Below, in pieces: positions 1 through 8,408 of a DNA stretch of 10,023 nucleotides. Within the stretch, counting starts at the first letter, position 1. The number at the start of each line of letters is the position of its first letter. This stretch comes from Chthonomonadales bacterium (GTDB lineage Bacteria > Armatimonadota > Chthonomonadetes > Chthonomonadales > Chthonomonadaceae), in assembly GCA_038217285.1 (NCBI GenBank), contig JBBQPO010000233.1:1-10023 (forward strand). The letters are read 5' to 3'. The notes under the pieces are model-generated. The model did no database searches and had not been told where the DNA came from. It worked only from the letters and a program-made list of their open reading frames with translations. The position numbers and the translations under genes are program-made.

Positions 1-1572
1 CAGGCGCGCAAAGTTTGCGGTCACGCCCATGTTTTTTAGAGCGTTGCCCGCCACAGTGATCTGCTCACTGAGGCTCAAACCACCTGTACGTACAGCCTGA
101 CCTTCGTCATCTAGGGCGTTTCGGGTGGTCTCCTCATGCACCGAGGGGACAAAAGCGTCCTTCTCAGGTGCATCATGGCGTAGCCCCAGGGTGTCTTTGA
201 CCAGTTTGAAGCCGGAAAGCAGGCCTGCTGTTTCCACGAACGAAAAGCACGAGACGGCCGACGTTTTGAAAGCGTTCCAGGAGTATTCCAATCGGCGGGA
301 GAAGGACTGCTTCCGGAGAGCGTTCGCCTCCTGGTCGGGCGATGCCCCCCTCAATGTTTCCCGAATGCGAAATGCCGGCTTCAGCAAGACCGGGCATTGG
401 GCCTGACCCTCCTGCTGACCAAAAGGAATATATTCTATCGGAAAGCCGAAGAAACCAGCGAATCCTACCGTTGCGATTCCTGGAGTTTCCGCTTCCAGAG
501 CGCGACGTAACAGTTCCGAACGTACATCGATGCAAAACACGGCCTGCACTTTAGGACGGGCCGTAGGCGCAGTGAGAGGAGGTGATGCCGTGCCAAGATG
601 CGCGAGCAACTGGCGCTGGTAAGCGTTCTCCGCTGCCAGTTGCCATAGGAAGCGCGGTAGGTGGGATTGGCTCCCAACATTTGGCATCTTCTCTGAGATG
701 CCGGTCGGTGGCCAGTAGTGTCGAAGCTCAGATGCATCGTATTTGCGGTACAGGGCGACATCGTAGACCATCCGAATGGCCAGTAGTTGGTGCAACGACT
801 CGTCGTCTCTGCCGTTCATGCGGTTGTCGCGCACCTTCTGCCGCGTATATCCGCTCCAGCCGGCTATCGACATCAGTTCGCGATGCAGAAATTCGGTCGT
901 GTCGGCAGACGCTATCTGCAAGACGTTTAGCGCCTCTGCGATTACCGTGACGACGTCATCCGGCAATCGAGCAACGCATGCACGAAAGTCGCGCAGCCCC
1001 ATCATCTCCGGATTGGCATCGCGCAAGGCGGCTTGTTTCCAGGCGGCAAAAATCGGTTCCTCCCGCCAGGGCATCCGCCAGGACGCCTGGCCTTCATCGT
1101 AGTAGGCAGAACACCACTTGGAGATCTCGTCCACCACGAAAGCAGCCCACGATGTGCCGCACTGTCGATCTACCGCATCCGCGACCGTGAAAACGGCATC
1201 TTTTGCCTGGCCCCGATCAGGTAGGCTCTCCGTATCTCGTAGCACAGCTTTAAGAGAATCCGCCGTCCATTGGTCCAGTTCCACAGCGTACTCCTGCGGC
1301 AGGGTCTGCCTGGCCTGAACGATGGCGCTGCACAGATCGGTGTTTTGAATGTGGCCAATATCGAGCTGCTGTTTATAGTAGGAGAGAGGCATGACCAGGT
1401 CGCCATGCGTCACGCGACTTAAAAGGGCGCACGCATCGACGAATGGCCTATCGGAGAGGCCGACAAACGGATTGACGGCGACGAAACTTTTCAAGGGCCA
1501 CAGCGGAGGAATGCGCGCACAGGCTTCCTCGATCCGTCTTTGTAGAACGTCGGTAGTAATGCAGTCTCTCAT
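1..1572 (-). CDS. dabA: Inorganic carbon transporter soluble subunit DabA (DUF2309/UPF0753; MpsB-like, cryptic beta-carbonic anhydrase site); 3' end outside window
   Basis: Translated by hand: ATG at 1572, preceded by AAAGGAGA, open for 524 codons to the window edge. It begins MRDCITTDVLQRRIEEACARIPPLWPLKSFVAVNPFVGL. Family motifs: ISKWCSAYYDEGQASW, GWSGY, QAVFCIDVRSE (Zn ligands C347/D349, nt 534-526), GFAGFFG, CPVLL, FSFVETAG, NFARL. It lies directly downstream of dabB. Confidence 0.96.
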   Translation of the reverse strand, partial: MRDCITTDVLQRRIEEACARIPPLWPLKSFVAVNPFVGLSDRPFVDACALLSRVTHGDLVMPLSYYKQQLDIGHIQNTDLCSAIVQARQTLPQEYAVELDQWTADSLKAVLRDTESLPDRGQAKDAVFTVADAVDRQCGTSWAAFVVDEISKWCSAYYDEGQASWRMPWREEPIFAAWKQAALRDANPEMMGLRDFRACVARLPDDVVTVIAEALNVLQIASADTTEFLHRELMSIAGWSGYTRQKVRDNRMNGRDDESLHQLLAIRMVYDVALYRKYDASELRHYWPPTGISEKMPNVGSQSHLPRFLWQLAAENAYQRQLLAHLGTASPPLTAPTARPKVQAVFCIDVRSELLRRALEAETPGIATVGFAGFFGFPIEYIPFGQQEGQAQCPVLLKPAFRIRETLRGASPDQEANALRKQSFSRRLEYSWNAFKTSAVSCFSFVETAGLLSGFKLVKDTLGLRHDAPEKDAFVPSVHEETTRNALDDEGQAVRTGGLSLSEQITVAGNALKNMGVTANFARL

Positions 1573-1637
1573 GCCGGGAATGTCTCCTTTGCAAAGTAGC
1601 CTTGTGATACCTATAGTTCACCCACCAATGGCCGTTC

Positions 1638-3236
1638 TCACCTCGGTCTTACGGGCCAGATAGCGTGGATCGCACGGTTTGCCAGCGTGTTGAAGTAGAA
1701 GCCGTTCCGAGCGTGGACATAGAGGCTGCGGCACCAGGAACGCGAAGCCCACTGTGGAAGCTGCGCTTGAAGCACCAGCATTCCTCCAAAAAGCATCCAG
1801 ATCGTAACCAGCAACACCCCATGACCTGGAGAGCGGCGCTCGCTGAGCAGCGGCAAGGCAGAGGCCAGCAAGGCTCTGAAACCGAGATGGAGCCCGAAAT
1901 AGAGCCCGCTCAGTGTGGCGCACAATAGTAGACCAGCAGTGACGAGGCGCGGCGTGATCGATTGGCCCCATATACTCCACAGCCAGTACGCCAGGGACAC
2001 CAGTAGTACGGAATGGAGAAGCGCTTCGCCCGGCTCTGCAAGGGGAGAAACACCCCAGAAATAGGCCGTCAGAGAGGTCACAAGAACAGAGGTGAACAGA
2101 GAGGCTGCGAATACGGCGGGATGCGCGGCAGGTCGTTCACGTGGAACCCAGGAAGTCTTCGATATCGCCACCACGCTGCCGGAGGAAAGAAAGGCGTGCG
2201 CCTTGTAGAGTGAGTGAGCCACAATATGCAAGACAGCAATAGAATAGGCGCCCAGCCCGCACTGCAGGAGCATAAAACCCATCTGCGCAATGGTCGAAAA
2301 GGCGAGCATCCGCTTGATGCTCGCCTGCGTCATCATCACCAGGGAGGCAAAAATGGCCGTACACGCGCCCACAATCGCCAGGGTATCCAGAGCGAGCGGT
2401 GAGAGAGAGACGATCGGGCTGAGACGCAGGATCATAAACCCGCCCGCATTGATGATGCCGGCGTGCATCAAAGCCGAAACGGGGGTTGGGGTCTCCATCG
2501 TATCGGGCAACCAGGAATGAAACGGAATTTGGGCCGATTTGAGCATCGCGGCGACTACCAGTAAGAGGCAGACTGGGATGATCGCGGGCGGTAGATGGCC
2601 ACTGGCATGGAGCGCTCCTGCATCCGCGAACAGTTCACGAAACTCCCAGGTGCCAAACACGTGGTAAACCAGTACGAGCACTGCCAGCAGGCAGAGATCC
2701 CCCAGGCGACTGATCACGAACTTTTTGCGTGCGGCGACGAGCGCGGCAGGCCGATGAGCATAAAAAGTCAGTAATTTGTGCAGCGCCAGGCTGGTGCCCA
2801 TCCACGCTCCTGCAAACAGCGCCAGATTGCCGGAGACGAGCAGCGTCAATACGGCACCTATGGTGACGCACAGCCATTTTAGAAAATACCCTTGCTCCGC
2901 ATCTCCCTGTAGGTATCGGCACGCATAGCGCGTGACGATCATCCCCAGAAAGGCTACCAATACGAGCATCACAATAGAGAGAATGTCGCAGTAAATCCCG
3001 ATCTGGAGGTGATTCCACTCCACAAAGACATTCTGAATTCGCCCAATAAAAGCTTGATGCAATGCACATAAAAGGGCAGCCGCGAACGCTAAGACGGTCA
3101 CACAGGAGGCCAGGTGAGAGATCTGCTTTGCATGGTGGTTGGCCCATCGCCTTGGCACCAACAGAAAGGCTAACAGCAGCAGTGGCCCGGATACCACAAG
3201 CATCGCTGCGGACGAACAGTTCCAAAGTAAAGGCAT
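1638..3236 (-). CDS. dabB: Inorganic carbon transporter membrane subunit DabB (NuoL/ND5/MrpA-like proton-translocating subunit, MpsA-like)
   Basis: 532-aa polytopic protein with ND5-family motifs SRLGD, KSAQIPFHSWLPDTMETPTPVSALMHAG, IKRMLAFSTIAQMGFM and HIVAHSLYKAHAFL. C-terminus LYVHARNGFYFN is DabB-like. RBS GAGGAGG lies 7 nt upstream. It is adjacent to a DUF2309 gene, with no other nuo or mrp genes in the window. Confidence 0.95.
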   Translation of the reverse strand: MPLLWNCSSAAMLVVSGPLLLLAFLLVPRRWANHHAKQISHLASCVTVLAFAAALLCALHQAFIGRIQNVFVEWNHLQIGIYCDILSIVMLVLVAFLGMIVTRYACRYLQGDAEQGYFLKWLCVTIGAVLTLLVSGNLALFAGAWMGTSLALHKLLTFYAHRPAALVAARKKFVISRLGDLCLLAVLVLVYHVFGTWEFRELFADAGALHASGHLPPAIIPVCLLLVVAAMLKSAQIPFHSWLPDTMETPTPVSALMHAGIINAGGFMILRLSPIVSLSPLALDTLAIVGACTAIFASLVMMTQASIKRMLAFSTIAQMGFMLLQCGLGAYSIAVLHIVAHSLYKAHAFLSSGSVVAISKTSWVPRERPAAHPAVFAASLFTSVLVTSLTAYFWGVSPLAEPGEALLHSVLLVSLAYWLWSIWGQSITPRLVTAGLLLCATLSGLYFGLHLGFRALLASALPLLSERRSPGHGVLLVTIWMLFGGMLVLQAQLPQWASRSWCRSLYVHARNGFYFNTLANRAIHAIWPVRPR

Positions 3237-3286
3237 CAGCGATCCTCCTCTTAGTGGAAATAATTTACCGTTTAGGGTACTATCAC

Positions 3287-3315
3287 TTCACGATTCCTAT
3301 GACACGAAGTATTAT
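3287..3315 (+). promoter_or_regulatory. Putative sigma70 promoter of the regulator operon
   Basis: TTCACG (3287-3292), a 17-nt spacer, then TATTAT (3310-3315). The -10 overlaps the -10 of the dabBA promoter on the opposite strand. Confidence 0.5.
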
Positions 3316-3340
3316 ACACGAAACATAGTTCGTATGTCAA
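3311..3340 (-). promoter_or_regulatory. sigma70-type promoter of dabBA
   Basis: Minus strand reads TTGACA (3340-3335), an 18-nt spacer, then TATAAT (3316-3311). Both hexamers are perfect consensus, about 75 nt upstream of the dabB start. Confidence 0.88.
3314..3337. promoter_or_regulatory. Palindromic candidate operator ATACACGAA-N6-TTCGTATGT (core ACGAA-N6-TTCGT)
   Basis: Inverted repeat centred at 3325/3326, with a perfect 5-bp core (3318-3322 / 3329-3333) and 7 of 9 matches in the arms. It fills the -35/-10 spacer of the dabBA promoter, next to a divergent wHTH gene. Confidence 0.7.
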
Positions 3341-3386
3341 GCGGCATGAAGCGCGTTTGACGGAATATTTTAGATGAGGAACAGAA

Positions 3387-3686
3387 ATGACAGAAGTGAG
3401 GAAATCCGCCCAGGGGTGGACATTTTTGACCAATCACGCACACGTGCTGATCTGCCTGGTGCGTGAGCCCGATTTGCGCCTACGTGATGTCGCATTACAG
3501 GTGGGTATTACAGAACGCGGTGTGCAGCGGATCGTCACGGAACTCGAAGAGGCCGGAATTTTAACGCGCAATCGTGACGGACGGCGAAATCATTATCAAG
3601 TGGATACGACCCGTCCTTTGCGTCATCCAATCGAAGCGCATTGCACGATAAGTCAACTGCTGGAGATGGTGGCAACAGATCCGTGA
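3387..3686 (+). CDS. Small winged helix-turn-helix transcriptional regulator (MarR/ArsR/AsnC-like HTH, 'WTFLTNHAHVL' type)
   Basis: 99 aa, with RBS GAGGA 6 nt upstream. HTH: LRDVALQVGITERGVQRIVTELEEAG; wing: RNRDGRRNHYQV. Divergent from dabB. Confidence 0.9.
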   Translation: MTEVRKSAQGWTFLTNHAHVLICLVREPDLRLRDVALQVGITERGVQRIVTELEEAGILTRNRDGRRNHYQVDTTRPLRHPIEAHCTISQLLEMVATDP

Positions 3687-3737
3687 AGATTCGTGTTTGA
3701 GCGACTCAGAAGAATGTCTTTTTCAAGGAGCGTTACT

Positions 3738-4868
3738 GTGGCGATTGGTATGACGTATGCGCGAGCGCGATTGTGGCTGGGAATCAGTTGCGTGGGAACG
3801 ATGGTCGTGGTTTCAATTCTGTTGTTGCTGTTCCGGGTTCCGGCGTATCTGCTTACGACGGGGATGGCACCGTTCGGTACGGAGGTCGCGGAGTTAGTAG
3901 GAGTTCTGTTCGCCTATGCGTTCCTGAGCATCCCCTTCGACTTTTTCGGCGGCTACATCCTGCCGAAAGAGTACGAGCGTTCCACGCTTCGTTTCCCGCA
4001 GTTTCTCGGTAGATGGCTGCGCGGCGTCATACTTCACAGCACGATTTTGCTGCTGATCGCCCTTGCTCTGTTGCACGCGGCGAAGGTGGGCGGCTTCCCC
4101 ATGTTTCTCGGCGCGTATCTTACTCTCAACCTCGTCTTGCTGCTCCTGCAAGCCCTGCTTGCAAATCTTCTCGGCGGTACGACGTATCGTAAGACGGATA
4201 CAGAGACGGCGCCATCCAAAGTGCTTTTCGCCGTAAATCCGAATCCCTACTACACGGGCGGCATTGCGGGATTGCCGGGTATGGAGCGCGTGATTGTGCC
4301 GGAATGGTGGCGAACTGAGTTCTCGGCGGAACAACTGGAAACGATACTGCTTCGTCGAACAGCCGTCCTGCGAAATGGTTCTCGCACACGCGGACTACTG
4401 CTGGCTCTGCTCTGGAATACCTTCGGGGTGTGTCTCTGCGCGTTGCTGTCGGGGCATCTCGCGACAGTTGGGGGAGTGGTCACGTTCAGCCTATGGTTCA
4501 CGCTCTGGAATTTCATCGGGCTGTTGCTGTTGCCTGCGCCGTCGCAAAGAGGTGTGTTTGGCGGCGATACGTTCGCGCTACGGCACGGTGCAAAAATGCA
4601 GACGCTGGAAGCTATTATCGCGCAACTCGACTCGTACCAGGACGATGAGGTTTCCCGCGTTCCCAGCGTTGAGACCTATTTCCATCCGATTCCCTCCGTC
4701 GAGCGGCGGCTGACTATGCTCGATGCGGGCGGTTCTGCCGAAATCGGCGCGTGGAATGGGGCAAGAATGGCGATCTATCTCTCGTGGGCAGGCGGCAGTT
4801 TCCTCTCCCGCGCCGTCCATTGCAACTGCGGACGCCCCGATGTCTGGGTCTTCCTGCCGTGCGATTAA
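3738..4868 (+). CDS. Polytopic membrane protein, degenerate M48 (Ste24/HtpX-like) peptidase fold lacking HExxH; His/Cys-rich C-terminus
   Basis: The ORF is open from 3693; the best start is GTG at 3738, 7 nt after AAGGAG (3725-3730). It has several hydrophobic segments. Collinear M48-like blocks: LSIPFDFFGGYILPKEYERS, NPYYTG..ERVIV, FSAEQLETILLRRTAV, SQRGVFGGDTFA, FHPIPSVERRL. It ends RAVHCNCGRPDVWVFLPCD. The CDS is well supported; the fold assignment is by eye. Confidence 0.75.
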   Translation: MAIGMTYARARLWLGISCVGTMVVVSILLLLFRVPAYLLTTGMAPFGTEVAELVGVLFAYAFLSIPFDFFGGYILPKEYERSTLRFPQFLGRWLRGVILHSTILLLIALALLHAAKVGGFPMFLGAYLTLNLVLLLLQALLANLLGGTTYRKTDTETAPSKVLFAVNPNPYYTGGIAGLPGMERVIVPEWWRTEFSAEQLETILLRRTAVLRNGSRTRGLLLALLWNTFGVCLCALLSGHLATVGGVVTFSLWFTLWNFIGLLLLPAPSQRGVFGGDTFALRHGAKMQTLEAIIAQLDSYQDDEVSRVPSVETYFHPIPSVERRLTMLDAGGSAEIGAWNGARMAIYLSWAGGSFLSRAVHCNCGRPDVWVFLPCD

Positions 4869-5017: not shown

Positions 5018-5665
5018 ATGTTCATAACCAGAAATGTTTTGTCCGCCCTATTAGCTGTCACCGGAAGCACCTTGATGGCCGCTCTGACCGTCAGTGCACA
5101 GGAAAAGCCAGTCGGGCAGGAAGAGAAGGCCGCAGGCAACAAAGTGGCCCCCCAAGCGAAATACGTGAAACTGAAGACCACCCTCTACACCCTTGAGCTA
5201 CCCGCTGGCTGGGAGGCAGGCCCCGAGACGCCTTTCGGGCAGCGTGAGATCAAGCCCATGCGGGCGACCGATATGGGAAAGCCAGCCGAGAAGTCTGTCG
5301 AGCAGGACTCGATCAAAGGGGACGAAGGGCAGTCCCTCGGTGGAATGACCGCCATGACCGCACAGGGGTTGACCACGTCCTCCTGGGACCAACTCTACAA
5401 GACGTCGCTCTTTTACATCACGCGCTATGACCGCAGCGACAAGATTAAGGCGACCCCCTACAAACTCTCCAAAACGAAGCGGGGCCTGGCGTCCTGCTCC
5501 TGGACGATGCAGGACGCAGAGGGCGTATCCCACGCGCGCTACACTATTCTGAAAAGCCCGAAAGGGCCTATTCTTGCGCTCAGCGTCAAGTTCCCGAACA
5601 AGGCGAGCCAGAAACGCCTCGACGCCTATTTCCAGCATGTCGTGGACACGGCCCTCTTCAACTAA
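5018..5665 (+). CDS. Secreted/periplasmic hypothetical protein (215 aa), possibly PsbP/Mog1-like fold
   Basis: AGGAG RBS just upstream of the ATG at 5018. Sec-type signal peptide MFITRNVLSALLAVTGSTLMAALTVSA|QE. The pattern YTLELPAGWE ... DAYFQHVVDTALF recalls PsbP-like domains (weak). Confidence 0.75.
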   Translation: MFITRNVLSALLAVTGSTLMAALTVSAQEKPVGQEEKAAGNKVAPQAKYVKLKTTLYTLELPAGWEAGPETPFGQREIKPMRATDMGKPAEKSVEQDSIKGDEGQSLGGMTAMTAQGLTTSSWDQLYKTSLFYITRYDRSDKIKATPYKLSKTKRGLASCSWTMQDAEGVSHARYTILKSPKGPILALSVKFPNKASQKRLDAYFQHVVDTALFN

Positions 5666-5846: not shown

Positions 5847-8336
5847 TTAAGCGACTGCGGCGGGCTCGTCGAGGGCCGTCAGTCCTTCTTCCGGAAGGCT
5901 TGGCCGGAAGATGATCTCGTTGTTCTCAAGCGACGCGTGAATGATATCGCCTGCTCGGAAAGTGCCGCGCAGCACTTCCTCTGCCAGCGGATCTTCGATC
6001 AAGCGCTGGATTGCCCGGCGGAGCGGACGCGCGCCCATAGTAGGGTCGAAGCCCTCTTTTGCCAGCATCTCCCGCACTTCGGTCGAGACGGTGATACTCA
6101 TCTGCTGGGTCGCAACCTGCTTGTTGACGCGCGCCAACATCAGATCCACGATCTGGAGGATCTCGCCCTCAGTAAGTGACTGGAACACGATGACTTCGTC
6201 TATGCGGTTCAGGAACTCGGGACGGAAGGTCTTCTTCATCTCGTCCATGACCCGGTTCTTCATGCCCTCGTAGACTCGCTCGCCGGTGCCTTTGCGCTCC
6301 TCATCCGACCGGAGGCCCATGCCGCGTTCGGGGTTGATGGACCGCGCCCCGATATTCGAGGTCATGATGATGACGGTATTCTTGAAGTCGACGATGCGGC
6401 CCTGCGAATCGGTAAGGCGACCGTCTTCTGCGACTTGCAGCAGAATATTGAAGACTTCCGGATGCGCTTTCTCGATCTCATCCAGAAGGACGACCGAGTA
6501 CGGGTTGCGGCGGACGGCTTCCGTCAACTGACCGCCCTCCTCGTAACCGACGTAGCCTGGAGGCGCGCCAACAAGGCGACTGACGTTGAAGCGCTCCGAG
6601 TACTCGCTCATGTCGATCCGGATCAGGTTGTTCTCGCTGTCGAAGAGGAACGACGACAGGGCGCGGGCCAGTTCGGTCTTGCCGGTGCCGGTCGGCCCCA
6701 TGAAGATGAACGTGCCCATCGGGCGCTTCGGATCCTTCATGCCGGAGCGAGCGCGGCGAACCGCCTTGCTCACAGCGACGATGGCGTCGTGCTGACCGAT
6801 GATCTTCTTGTGCAGCTCCTCTTCCATACGGAGCAGCTTCTGGGTTTCGGCCTCTACCAGACGGCTGACCGGGATTCCGGTCCAGGCGGTGACGATCTGG
6901 GCGACCTCTTCCTCCGTCACGATGCGGGGCATGCTTTCGCGGCGACTGTTCCAGTCCAGTTCGAGTTCCGCGATCTGCTGCTTGAGCTCTTCCTGTCGGG
7001 CCTGAAGGTTGTTTTCGCCCATCTCCCATTTCGCGCCATTCACCATGGCGTTGACTTCCTTCTGCACCTCGACCAGCTTCTGCTTGGCCTGACGTAGTTC
7101 GGCAGGGGGCAAGGCATAGAGCAGTCGGACACGGCTGGCGGCTTCATCGATCAGGTCGATGGCCTTGTCCGGCAGGAAGCGGTCCGTGATATAGCGATCC
7201 GCCAGTTGCGCGGCAGCCACAAGCGCGTCGTCCGTGATTTTCACATGGTGATGCGTCTCGTAGCGTTCGCGCAGACCTTTCAGGATCTCCACGGCTTCGT
7301 CCGGCGTGGGTTCGCTGACCTTTACCGGCTGGAAACGACGCTGCAGGGCGGCATCGCGCTCGATATACTTGCGGAACTCGTCGAGTGTGGTCGCGCCGAT
7401 ACACTGCAGCTCACCACGGGCGAGCGCTGGCTTCATGATGTTCGAGGCGTCGATCGCGCCTTCGGCAGCGCCAGCGCCGACGAGGGTGTGCAGTTCGTCT
7501 ACGAACAGGACGATCTCGCCTGCCGCTTTCCGAACCTCCTCCATCACGCGCTTCATCCGCTCTTCGAACTCACCGCGATACTTGGTACCGGCAACCAGGC
7601 CAGCCAGATCGAGCGAGACGATACGCTTGTCTTTCAACATCTCCGGGATGTCTCCGGTAATGATTCGCTGCGCCAGCCCTTCGGCAATCGCCGTCTTGCC
7701 CACGCCGGGCTCACCGAGCAGGACCGGGTTGTTTTTGGTGCGGCGACTCAGGATCTGGATCACGCGCTCGATCTCGGTGTTACGTCCAACGACCGGATCG
7801 AGCTTTTCGTTGCGGGCCAGTTCCGTGAGGTCGCGTCCGAACTCATCGAGGGTAGGGGTGCGGGATCGCTGACCCTGTTTCTGCGTCGGGCCGGCGCCAC
7901 TATCGTTGTCCTGCAGCGCCATAACCTCACGCCGAGTCCTCTCCAGCTCCACGCCGAGTTTCGCCAGCACACGTCCTGCCAGACCCTCGCCCTCGCGGAT
8001 CAGGCCGAGCAGAAGGTGCTCCGTTCCGATATAGTTGTTGCTCAGTTGCCGCGCTTCGTCGTAAGCGAGATCGATCACGCGCTTGGCCCGAGGCGTGAGC
8101 TGCATGTCTTGTCCCTGACGTCCGTCCCCGCGTGCCACCTGTCGCTCGATCTCACTGCGAATGCGACCCAGCGAGACACCCATTCTATCTAATATCCGAG
8201 CGGCCACGCTGTCGTTCTCGCGTACCAGTCCGAGGAGCAGATGTTCGGTGGAGACATAGTTCTCACCGAGCCGTCCGGCCTCTTCCTGGGCGAAAAACAC
8301 GACGCGTCGCGCCCGTTCCGTAAATCGTTGCCACAT
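5847..8336 (-). CDS. clpC: ATP-dependent Clp protease ATP-binding subunit ClpC (829 aa)
   Basis: Start at [10 protein letters not shown] (8336) after RBS AAGGAGG. Two Clp_N repeats (TEHLLLGL twice). NBD1: [16 protein letters not shown]. Short coiled-coil M domain. NBD2: [28 protein letters not shown]. Confidence 0.96.
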
Positions 8337-8408
8337 CGTTCTGAGTCCCTCCTTCTGTATGCTGCGCCGTCTCCACCATGCAGACAAACCGTCTGCGGGC
8401 CACCTGAC

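Follow-up and report, generated by a model that had tools for sequence, protein, structure and literature searches.

The window analysed here is a complete contig of 10,023 bp from G000, a 95% complete metagenome-assembled genome (MAG) of the Chthonomonadaceae (Armatimonadota). On this contig, dabB and dabA (minus strand) diverge from a plus-strand gene for a winged helix-turn-helix (wHTH) protein of 99 amino acids, with an intergenic gap of exactly 150 bp (3237-3386), and the wHTH gene is followed on the same strand, after a gap of 51 bp, by a gene for a membrane protein; every element of this arrangement agrees in position with the initial annotation of the window. Our best explanation is that dabB, dabA and the divergent wHTH gene would form a functional unit of three genes in which the wHTH protein acts as a homodimeric, autoregulated repressor of dabBA. 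A dimer bound to a palindrome at 3316-3335, with a half-site at 3302-3308, would shut the dabB promoter as well as the promoter of the regulator itself while bicarbonate or CO2 is ample, and would be released when they are scarce, the signal being read at a dimer-interface site composed of H17, H19, C23, R79 and H80. The family as a whole would report the sufficiency of inorganic carbon to uptake genes (DAB, SbtA with PII, SulP, beta-carbonic anhydrase), and its further regulon would comprise bicarbonate consumers (phosphoenolpyruvate (PEP) carboxylase, PurK/PurE, carbamoyl-phosphate synthase) and a CO2 releaser, isocitrate dehydrogenase (ICDH). For this explanation as a whole we estimate a probability of roughly 0.7.

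The genomic neighbourhoods of the wHTH family were studied in the loci of the best 80 of 207 relatives found in genomes, where neighbours were located by tblastn and assignments were confirmed with Pfam. The set of inorganic-carbon genes consisted of dabBA, sbtA(-PII), SulP, beta-carbonic anhydrase, ppc, purK/purE and icd. In 54 of the 80 loci, a gene of this set was present within 500 bp of the wHTH gene, usually in divergent orientation; these genes were dabB (17), icd (17), sbtA (6), purE (4), ppc (4), SulP (2), purK (2), dabA (1) and beta-carbonic anhydrase (1). If icd is left out, 38/80 loci have an inorganic-carbon gene within this distance. When the same queries were run on 80 loci of homologues of the membrane protein, a control of equal size and with overlapping taxa, 1/80 had such a gene anywhere within about 5 kb. 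The bias was replicated in metagenomes, where 49 of 80 wHTH contigs, many of them short, carried an inorganic-carbon gene within 500 bp. The initial annotation had expected inorganic-carbon genes beside homologues of both plus-strand genes, and for the wHTH gene the enrichment is clear (54/80 and 49/80 versus 1/80).

The arrangement of the window itself recurs. Locus L025 carries a dabBA-wHTH cassette whose wHTH protein is 89% identical to that of the window, and the closest metagenome relatives, L268 (77% identity) and L269 (75%), are both divergent from dabB. In four loci (L093, L060, L282, L283) a cluster of sbtA, PII, beta-carbonic anhydrase, purK and purE genes is divergent from the wHTH gene; in the Verrucomicrobiota (L093, L060; in metagenomes L282, L283 and L274) bicarbonate uptake and a bicarbonate-dependent step of purine synthesis are thus combined in one putative operon. 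According to one report, PurK uses bicarbonate and purK mutants require high CO2 (PMC10880623). Other carbon clusters beside wHTH genes contain icd, beta-carbonic anhydrase and SulP (L026), SulP and dabA (L045), or purK and carbamoyl-phosphate synthase (L058). Also, in two loci of the Opitutales (L037, L052) the gene that directly follows the wHTH gene encodes a NaChBac-like voltage-gated channel (Ion_trans, E 1e-52 to 1e-54), and in L101 an Mrp-like antiporter lies near the wHTH gene, which hints at a sodium or alkalinity side to the regulon.

A tree of 79 wHTH members was poorly resolved, the protein being short. On this tree the label 'dab' requires 4 changes, at least 2 of them made unavoidable by branches with good support, and the proteins of the window and of L025 stand apart from a Microbacteriaceae-type dab clade. 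Two dabBA-wHTH cassettes from a MAG labelled Acidobacteria G2_35 (L094, L100) nest within the Microbacteriaceae clade; their position suggests that they were mis-binned or recently transferred, and they are not countable as a separate phylum.

The second line of evidence comes from the control region between dabB and the wHTH gene. A simple promoter scan found 2 sites there, a count not above that in shuffled sequences (mean 1.0, standard deviation 1.0); the dabB-facing site, on the minus strand, has 12/12 bases of the sigma-70 consensus. The palindrome occupies the spacer of this dabB promoter, overlaps both its -10 and its -35 hexamer and covers the predicted transcription start of the wHTH gene's own promoter. 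Overlapping promoters and one palindrome had been described for this region before, and we can add the half-site at 3302-3308, which is located over the expected dabB transcription start. By analogy, a consensus promoter with a putative operator in its spacer is a classic repressor layout. A lone half-site TTCGTGT at 3690-3696, 4 bases past the stop codon of the wHTH gene and inside the 51-bp gap, is a single 7-mer that possibly occurs by chance.

Motif discovery was performed by word counting in 80 wHTH upstream regions and 73 coding controls, and TACACGAA was present in 17/80 upstream regions versus 0/73 controls. When an operator hit was defined as a match to ACACGAA-N6-TTCGTGT at 12 or more of the 14 specified bases, the operator was found upstream of the wHTH gene in 24/81 genome loci, in most of them at a distance of 50-110 bp. 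Elsewhere in those loci it occurred with 1 match per 704 kb, and control loci gave 3 matches per 702 kb. The putative operator is therefore more than a chance palindrome, as judged from its recurrence upstream of homologous wHTH genes (24/81 versus 1 per 704 kb). In the metagenome loci it was again found upstream in 21/80, versus 3 matches in 387 kb elsewhere. It was found alike in dab, icd, sbtA, ppc, purE and beta-carbonic anhydrase contexts, and in actinobacterial dab loci its variant is a direct repeat, spaced by 14 bp as is also seen in the window. When the 4 closest dabB-wHTH spacers were aligned, the operator and an adjoining GTCAAG (-35) block were both conserved. Based on these data we hold it to be highly probable that the wHTH protein binds the putative operator and controls dabBA and itself. 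That this control is repression, with the promoter being freed when inorganic carbon is short, is probable too, and here our confidence is clearly lower.

The wHTH protein belongs to a large and uncharacterised family. The generic HTH_24 was the only model whose cut-off was passed (27.6 bits versus 21.9), and scores for MarR_2 (25.1 versus 27), MarR (21.9 versus 24.6) and the ArsR/SmtB model NF033788 (22.5 versus 55) remained below their cut-offs; Pfam detected neither an HTH_1 nor a LysR_substrate domain in the 99 residues. At least 7,992 of 8,000 scored database clusters match the protein at E 1e-10 or better, and all of their names are generic. Members have 95-110 amino acids, are 55-89% identical and occur in at least 12 phyla; record titles name Armatimonadota, Planctomycetota, Verrucomicrobiota, Myxococcota, Bdellovibrionota, Pseudomonadota, Actinomycetota, Acidobacteriota, Deinococcota, Chloroflexota, Bacillota, Spirochaetota, Thermodesulfobacteriota and Abditibacteriota. 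A specific entry for the family was found in none of Pfam, NCBIfam and the PDB, the ESM Atlas returned generic or unannotated wHTH clusters only, and a sequence search of solved structures gave no close relative (best E 0.052).

The structural model of the wHTH protein (mean predicted local distance difference test (pLDDT) score 74.6) consists of helices at residues 16-26, 32-39 and 43-55, a beta-hairpin wing at 59-72 and a C-terminal helix at 88-96. Its top Foldseek matches were the MarR/ArsR repressors PcaV, Rv2887, MepR, AdcR, ArsR and SmtB. In 79 sequences T12, H17, H19, V20, C23, V39, T42, R44, I49, G65, R66, N68, Y70 and R79 are invariant, and further residues, W11, N16 and H80 among them, are almost invariant. 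Prediction of a homodimer gave a score of 0.76, whereas none of three controls scored above 0.00; in a benchmark, 20/30 proteins whose solved structure is a pair of one chain reached this score, as did 1/23 proteins solved as single chains. The dimer runs agreed in at least 82% of contacts, with a pLDDT of at least 83 for the partner chain. This pass may in part reflect mere likeness to solved structures, since wHTH dimers are well represented among them.

In the model, the predicted dimer interface is formed by residues 10-23 and 78-95, and H19 of one chain touches H80 of the other. This interface coincides with the two blocks that define the family, the N-terminal WTFLTNHAHVLIC and the C-terminal LRHP-E. 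ArsR/SmtB proteins have their sensing sites in the region of the dimer interface, and because of this analogy we propose the interface, with the invariant H17, H19, C23 and R79 plus H80, as a candidate effector site. A carbamate switch is unlikely, since no lysine is invariant in the 79 sequences. Binding of an anion by R79, H80, H17 and H19, with a metal or with none, would be a guess, and that bicarbonate itself is the ligand is a guess that we regard as doubtful.

The genes opposite the regulator were assigned as dabBA by several models. The encoded part of DabA scored 412.6 bits against PF10070 (cut-off 25), covering positions 1-465 of the 747 of the profile, with the rest cut off by the end of the contig. 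In DabA proteins the zinc ligands of the site resembling that of beta-carbonic anhydrases are Cys and Asp, followed by His and Cys. The C-I-D motif is invariant in 9/9 aligned DabA sequences, including the copy of the window, and the distal His/Cys region lies past the contig end. The dabB gene is located 65 bp upstream of dabA on the shared strand and encodes PF00361 and PF00662 domains; its product is 81% identical to that of the dabB of L025, the locus with equal gene arrangement, and scored 377.7 bits against NF006029, just under the cut-off of 380. From their sequences, the dabBA genes of the window are predicted to code for a CO2-hydrating pump of the DAB/MpsAB type with uptake activity. 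No match to the beta-carbonic anhydrase family PF00484 was obtained in G000, and for this reason DAB may be the main CO2-hydrating route of this genome. G000 also has one gene of the RuBisCO_large family (C27:1289-2134; 243 bits), for which a true RuBisCO and a RuBisCO-like protein are both conceivable.

Regulation of DAB was also surveyed from the side of the pump, using 80 DabA loci (L188-L267) in which 66 genes upstream of dabB could be assessed. Divergent LysR regulators accounted for 26 of the 66 genes directly upstream of dabB and were the commonest neighbour of DAB, as anticipated by the initial annotation, according to which carbon regulators are mostly of the LysR type. In L233 the operon has purK fused in before dabBA, and a wHTH gene is divergent from that operon. 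In 15 loci (Verrucomicrobia-type and others) minus-strand open reading frames (ORFs) of about 100 codons upstream of dabB had been considered as small regulators and were rejected as low-complexity antisense ORFs; none of them resembled the wHTH family, except for that of L260, which is a true member.

A number of observations weigh against the proposed carbon-responsive repressor. Many of the dab loci are kin, and 15/18 dab rows fall into one Microbacteriaceae-type clade. A member of the wHTH family is present within 6 kb in only 5/80 DabA loci, so the family is a minority regulator of DAB, for which LysR is the commoner neighbour; given these 5/80 loci and the 26/66 LysR genes, the family is a regulator of carbon genes that was recruited to DAB several times and not 'the' DAB regulator. 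In 26/80 genome loci no inorganic-carbon gene was found within 500 bp of the wHTH gene, and the neighbours there include ABC-3 metal permeases, outer-membrane efflux proteins and NaChBac-like channels. Whether icd counts as a gene of inorganic carbon is a matter of interpretation, and the carbon-gene queries had been drawn from these very wHTH loci, with the control being run with identical queries. An invariant His/Cys cluster is equally expected of a metal sensor. When the whole of G000 (6.2 Mb) was scanned for the operator, 13 matches were obtained, while three shuffled versions gave 9, 9 and 16. Inspection of the sequence around the best other sites (contigs C76, C322, C61 and C15) for an extended regulon revealed no carbon gene, and in G000 the regulon looks local, with no wider one visible at the threshold of 12/14.

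Also, in the taxonomic family of the window the wHTH gene adjoins icd, not dab, in 9/11 loci of relatives, and in G006 and G011, where both genes are present, dabA and the wHTH gene are on different contigs. In nine of these relatives (loci L006-L014 in G001, G003, G008, G010, G011, G015, G020, G021 and G024) the wHTH gene is paired with an ICDH bearing the bacterial C-terminal domain PF18324. The icd-linked arrangement was not found in G000, which has a single wHTH copy and whose best match to the ICDH type of its relatives is only 46% identical. While the membrane protein of G000 is 86-91% identical to same-genus copies, its wHTH protein is about 65% identical to them; because of this difference and of the absence of a close ICDH copy, the dabBA-wHTH cassette may have arrived in G000 by transfer.

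A regulator of this kind might respond to something other than inorganic carbon. According to one alternative, the signal read by the family is a carbon metabolite (2-oxoglutarate, PEP/oxaloacetate or aminoimidazole ribonucleotide) or the pH/Na+ status, or the family acts as an activator at some promoters. Neighbours such as icd, ppc and the E2/E3 genes of a 2-oxoacid dehydrogenase (L064) match a theme of tricarboxylic acid cycle and anaplerosis, the Mrp-like (L101) and NaChBac-like (L037, L052) neighbours suit a Na+/alkaline version, and a study on cyanobacteria describes their carbon regulators as sensing 2-oxoglutarate and NADP+, not carbon itself (PMC3401165). However, bicarbonate is the sole common denominator of DAB, SbtA/PII, SulP, beta-carbonic anhydrase, PEP carboxylase, PurK/PurE and carbamoyl-phosphate synthase, and an activator is not needed in the window, where the operator lies within a promoter of 12/12 consensus. 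We consider this alternative unlikely.

The conserved residues raise the question of a metal sensor (e.g., for zinc) of the ArsR/SmtB or AdcR type, which would be linked to DabA and beta-carbonic anhydrase by zinc demand. H17, H19 and C23 are invariant, H80 is nearly so, and all of them lie at the predicted dimer interface, where SmtB has its alpha5 metal sites; AdcR, ZitR and SmtB are among the Foldseek matches, and the weak match to the ArsR/SmtB metalloregulator model of NCBIfam (22.5 bits versus a cut-off of 55) and ABC-3 metal permeases adjoining 2/80 loci (L031, L077) fit as well. Yet most neighbours (SbtA, PEP carboxylase, PurK/PurE, ICDH, SulP, carbamoyl-phosphate synthase) are not zinc enzymes, typical genes of a zinc regulon were rare (2/42 loci scanned), and one of the two permease loci, L031, also has a divergent purE-purK at 192 bp. 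A metal sensor therefore appears quite improbable to us.

The gene downstream of the regulator had been taken for an uncharacterised accessory partner of DAB. Its product has 376 amino acids when read from the GTG at 3738, which is the length of its closest homologues. Among 8,000 scored database proteins at least 342 match it at E 0.001 or better; nearly all are named 'hypothetical', and they come from Armatimonadota, Deinococcota, Chloroflexota, Acidobacteriota, Planctomycetota and others. The AlphaFold model, based on a 27-row alignment, has a pLDDT of 91.3 and was matched by Foldseek, over nearly the full length of the protein, to human ZMPSTE24 (2ypt/4aw6; template modelling (TM) score 0.67, E 6.5e-7, about 370 columns) and to yeast Ste24p (4il3; TM score 0.64). 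The protein thus shares the seven-helix barrel of Ste24/ZMPSTE24 (peptidase M48A) but lacks HEXXH: neither HExxH nor HxxxH was found in any of the 27 aligned members, the catalytic M48 model of Pfam gave no match, and M48_N stayed under its cut-off. The earlier label of an M48 pseudoprotease is therefore appropriate. D277, D303-E304, H316 (in FHP) and a C-terminal VHCN-G-P-WV-P-D block are invariant, and the alignment has conserved blocks at the N-terminus (MTYARARLWLGI), at QDDE, at FHP-PS and at the C-terminus (VHCN-GRP-WV-P-D). Such conservation in a family of predicted Ste24 fold suggests that a non-M48 activity or a binding function was kept. The M48-like motifs SRxGVFxxD and FHPxPSxxxR are retained near the C-terminus.

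In the neighbourhoods this membrane protein behaves differently from the regulator. Its homologues were absent from 80 genome and 80 metagenome wHTH loci and from 80 DabA loci. In turn, the loci of the best 80 of its 187 relatives, studied with flanks of about 5 kb, contained no DabA, DabB or wHTH gene, contrary to what the initial annotation had expected. Clustering of the 1,530 flanking ORFs revealed no conserved neighbour at all, the largest cluster being present in 9/80 loci. The same-genus genomes G001 and G003 carry the membrane protein in other contexts, and the closest dabBA-wHTH cassettes (L025, L268) lack it. The membrane protein gene is adjacent and possibly co-transcribed, yet it is no part of a conserved module and is a passenger of this genome.

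That the wHTH protein works with the M48-like membrane protein as a regulatory or accessory pair for DAB, in the style of BlaI/BlaR1 or with a membrane partner of DabB, is hardly credible. A wHTH repressor with an M48/M56-type membrane protease is a known design, the two genes share a strand and are separated by only 51 bp in which no terminator is predicted, and BlaR1 chains appear low in the Foldseek list of the membrane protein (ranks 13-14, E 0.18-0.23). However, the neighbourhood counts (0/80 and 0/80 wHTH loci, 0/80 DabA loci, its own 80 loci without Dab or wHTH and with no neighbour common to more than 9/80, and other locations in G001 and G003) bring this pairing close to refuted, and together with the missing HEXXH (27/27 members) they led us to reject a BlaI/BlaR1-like one. 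Of the self-contained CO2/bicarbonate-responsive unit with a small repressor and a membrane partner that had been put forward, the non-LysR wHTH protein tied to carbon genes by neighbourhoods and operator has stood, and the membrane partner has not. Annotation of the Ste24-like pseudoprotease as a DAB accessory protein is not warranted.

When compared with known systems, the proposed wHTH repressor resembles the LysR carbon regulators CbbR, CmpR and CcmR/NdhR in being divergent from a transporter operon and, as proposed, in being autoregulated and in controlling the acquisition of inorganic carbon. LysR regulators, in contrast, have about 300 amino acids with HTH_1 and a LysR_substrate effector domain, whereas the wHTH protein is bare: it has a short helix at its C-terminus and lacks a separate effector domain. 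For H. neapolitanus, a preprint reports LysR regulators that gave high-CO2-requiring phenotypes and LysR and Crp/Fnr regulators of carbon uptake (10.1101/476713). The minimal ArsR/SmtB and MarR repressors (SmtB, AdcR/ZitR, PcaV, MepR) have the same fold, the predicted homodimer, a palindrome overlapping the promoter and His/Cys residues at the interface in common with the wHTH protein; unlike theirs, its neighbours concern inorganic carbon and not metals, aromatics or drugs, and its scores with the curated models lie below the cut-offs. SbtB, the PII-like partner of SbtA, is likewise a small protein dedicated to the control of bicarbonate uptake, but it acts on the transporter protein and does not bind DNA, and the PII gene after sbtA in L093, L060 and L282 appears to be a target here and not the regulator. 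Unlike BlaR1 (M56) with its paired wHTH repressor, the membrane protein of the window has no conserved link to any wHTH protein. A full-text literature search, outside of which lay subscription journals and preprint supplements, revealed no account from non-photosynthetic bacteria of a small wHTH protein that regulates DAB/MpsAB, SbtA or enzymes of bicarbonate use. We regard the family as one of putative wHTH repressors whose proposed regulon is new, coherent and distributed very widely, and a prior description is possible.

The features of the window are compiled in Table 1. The protein encoded at 5021-5665 has a clear signal peptide (MFITRNVLSALLAVTGSTLMAALTVSAQ), and in L001 no homologue of it was found beside the homologue of the membrane protein. 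After this gene the right part of the window contains genes for a ClpC-type ATPase (5847-8387, minus strand) and a class IV aminotransferase. An N-terminal fragment of 148 amino acids, 94% identical to the ClpC-type ATPase, is encoded at G000:C151:5030-5473, either as part of a second copy or because the gene was split in the assembly.

Table 1. Positions, strands and supporting evidence for features of the 10,023-bp window.
Feature	Positions	Strand	Evidence or remark
dabA, N-terminal 524 codons	1..1572	-	PF10070 E 4.8e-123; remainder beyond contig end
dabB, NuoL/Mrp-like membrane subunit, 532 aa	1638..3236	-	PF00361 (Proton_antipo_M) E 5.1e-46; PF00662
Predicted wHTH-gene promoter TTCACG-17-TATTAT	3287..3315	+	9/12 consensus
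Extra direct half-site ACACGAA	3302..3308	+	14 bp upstream of left arm of palindrome
Predicted dabB promoter	3311..3340	-	-35 TTGACA 3340-3335, 18-nt spacer, -10 TATAAT 3316-3311
Putative operator palindrome ACACGAA-acatag-TTCGTAT	3316..3335	.	13/14 to consensus ACACGAA-N6-TTCGTGT
Winged-helix regulator gene, 99 aa, family uncharacterised, inorganic-carbon-linked	3387..3686	+	HTH_24 27.6 bits
Ste24/M48-fold membrane protein without HEXXH, 376 aa	3738..4868	+	likely GTG start, AAGGAG before it
Protein of 214 aa with clear signal peptide	5021..5665	+	no Pfam or NCBIfam match

In its widest form, the carbon-responsive repressor explanation would make the family the direct sensor of CO2/bicarbonate that has long been missing for non-photosynthetic bacteria, a master repressor in the homeostasis of inorganic carbon, present in a dozen phyla, that reads bicarbonate at an inter-subunit His/Cys/Arg site, possibly via a bound metal as in carbonic anhydrases, and that switches on whichever supply route a genome owns (DAB, SbtA, SulP or carbonic anhydrase) together with PEP carboxylase, PurK/PurE, carbamoyl-phosphate synthase and a CO2-releasing dehydrogenase. 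We put this forward as a tentative idea. The icd gene may belong to such a regulon because internal production of CO2 can replace uptake: according to a 2026 preprint, B. subtilis lacking carbonic anhydrases and an MpsAB-like transporter was rescued by suppressors that raise CO2 production (PMC13622662).

Most bacteria need bicarbonate for anaplerosis and for the synthesis of purines, arginine/pyrimidines and fatty acids. To our knowledge, almost nothing has been reported on how the supply of inorganic carbon is sensed or regulated outside the cyanobacteria and a few chemoautotrophs. A compact family with a defined operator, adjoining nearly every known class of carbon-uptake genes, offers a directly testable entry point into this question. 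If the proposed function is true, the family would provide a ready-made CO2/bicarbonate-responsive switch for engineering, would allow for a better annotation of thousands of 'MarR/ArsR-like' genes and would help to predict which homologues of DAB, SbtA and SulP truly act in carbon supply.

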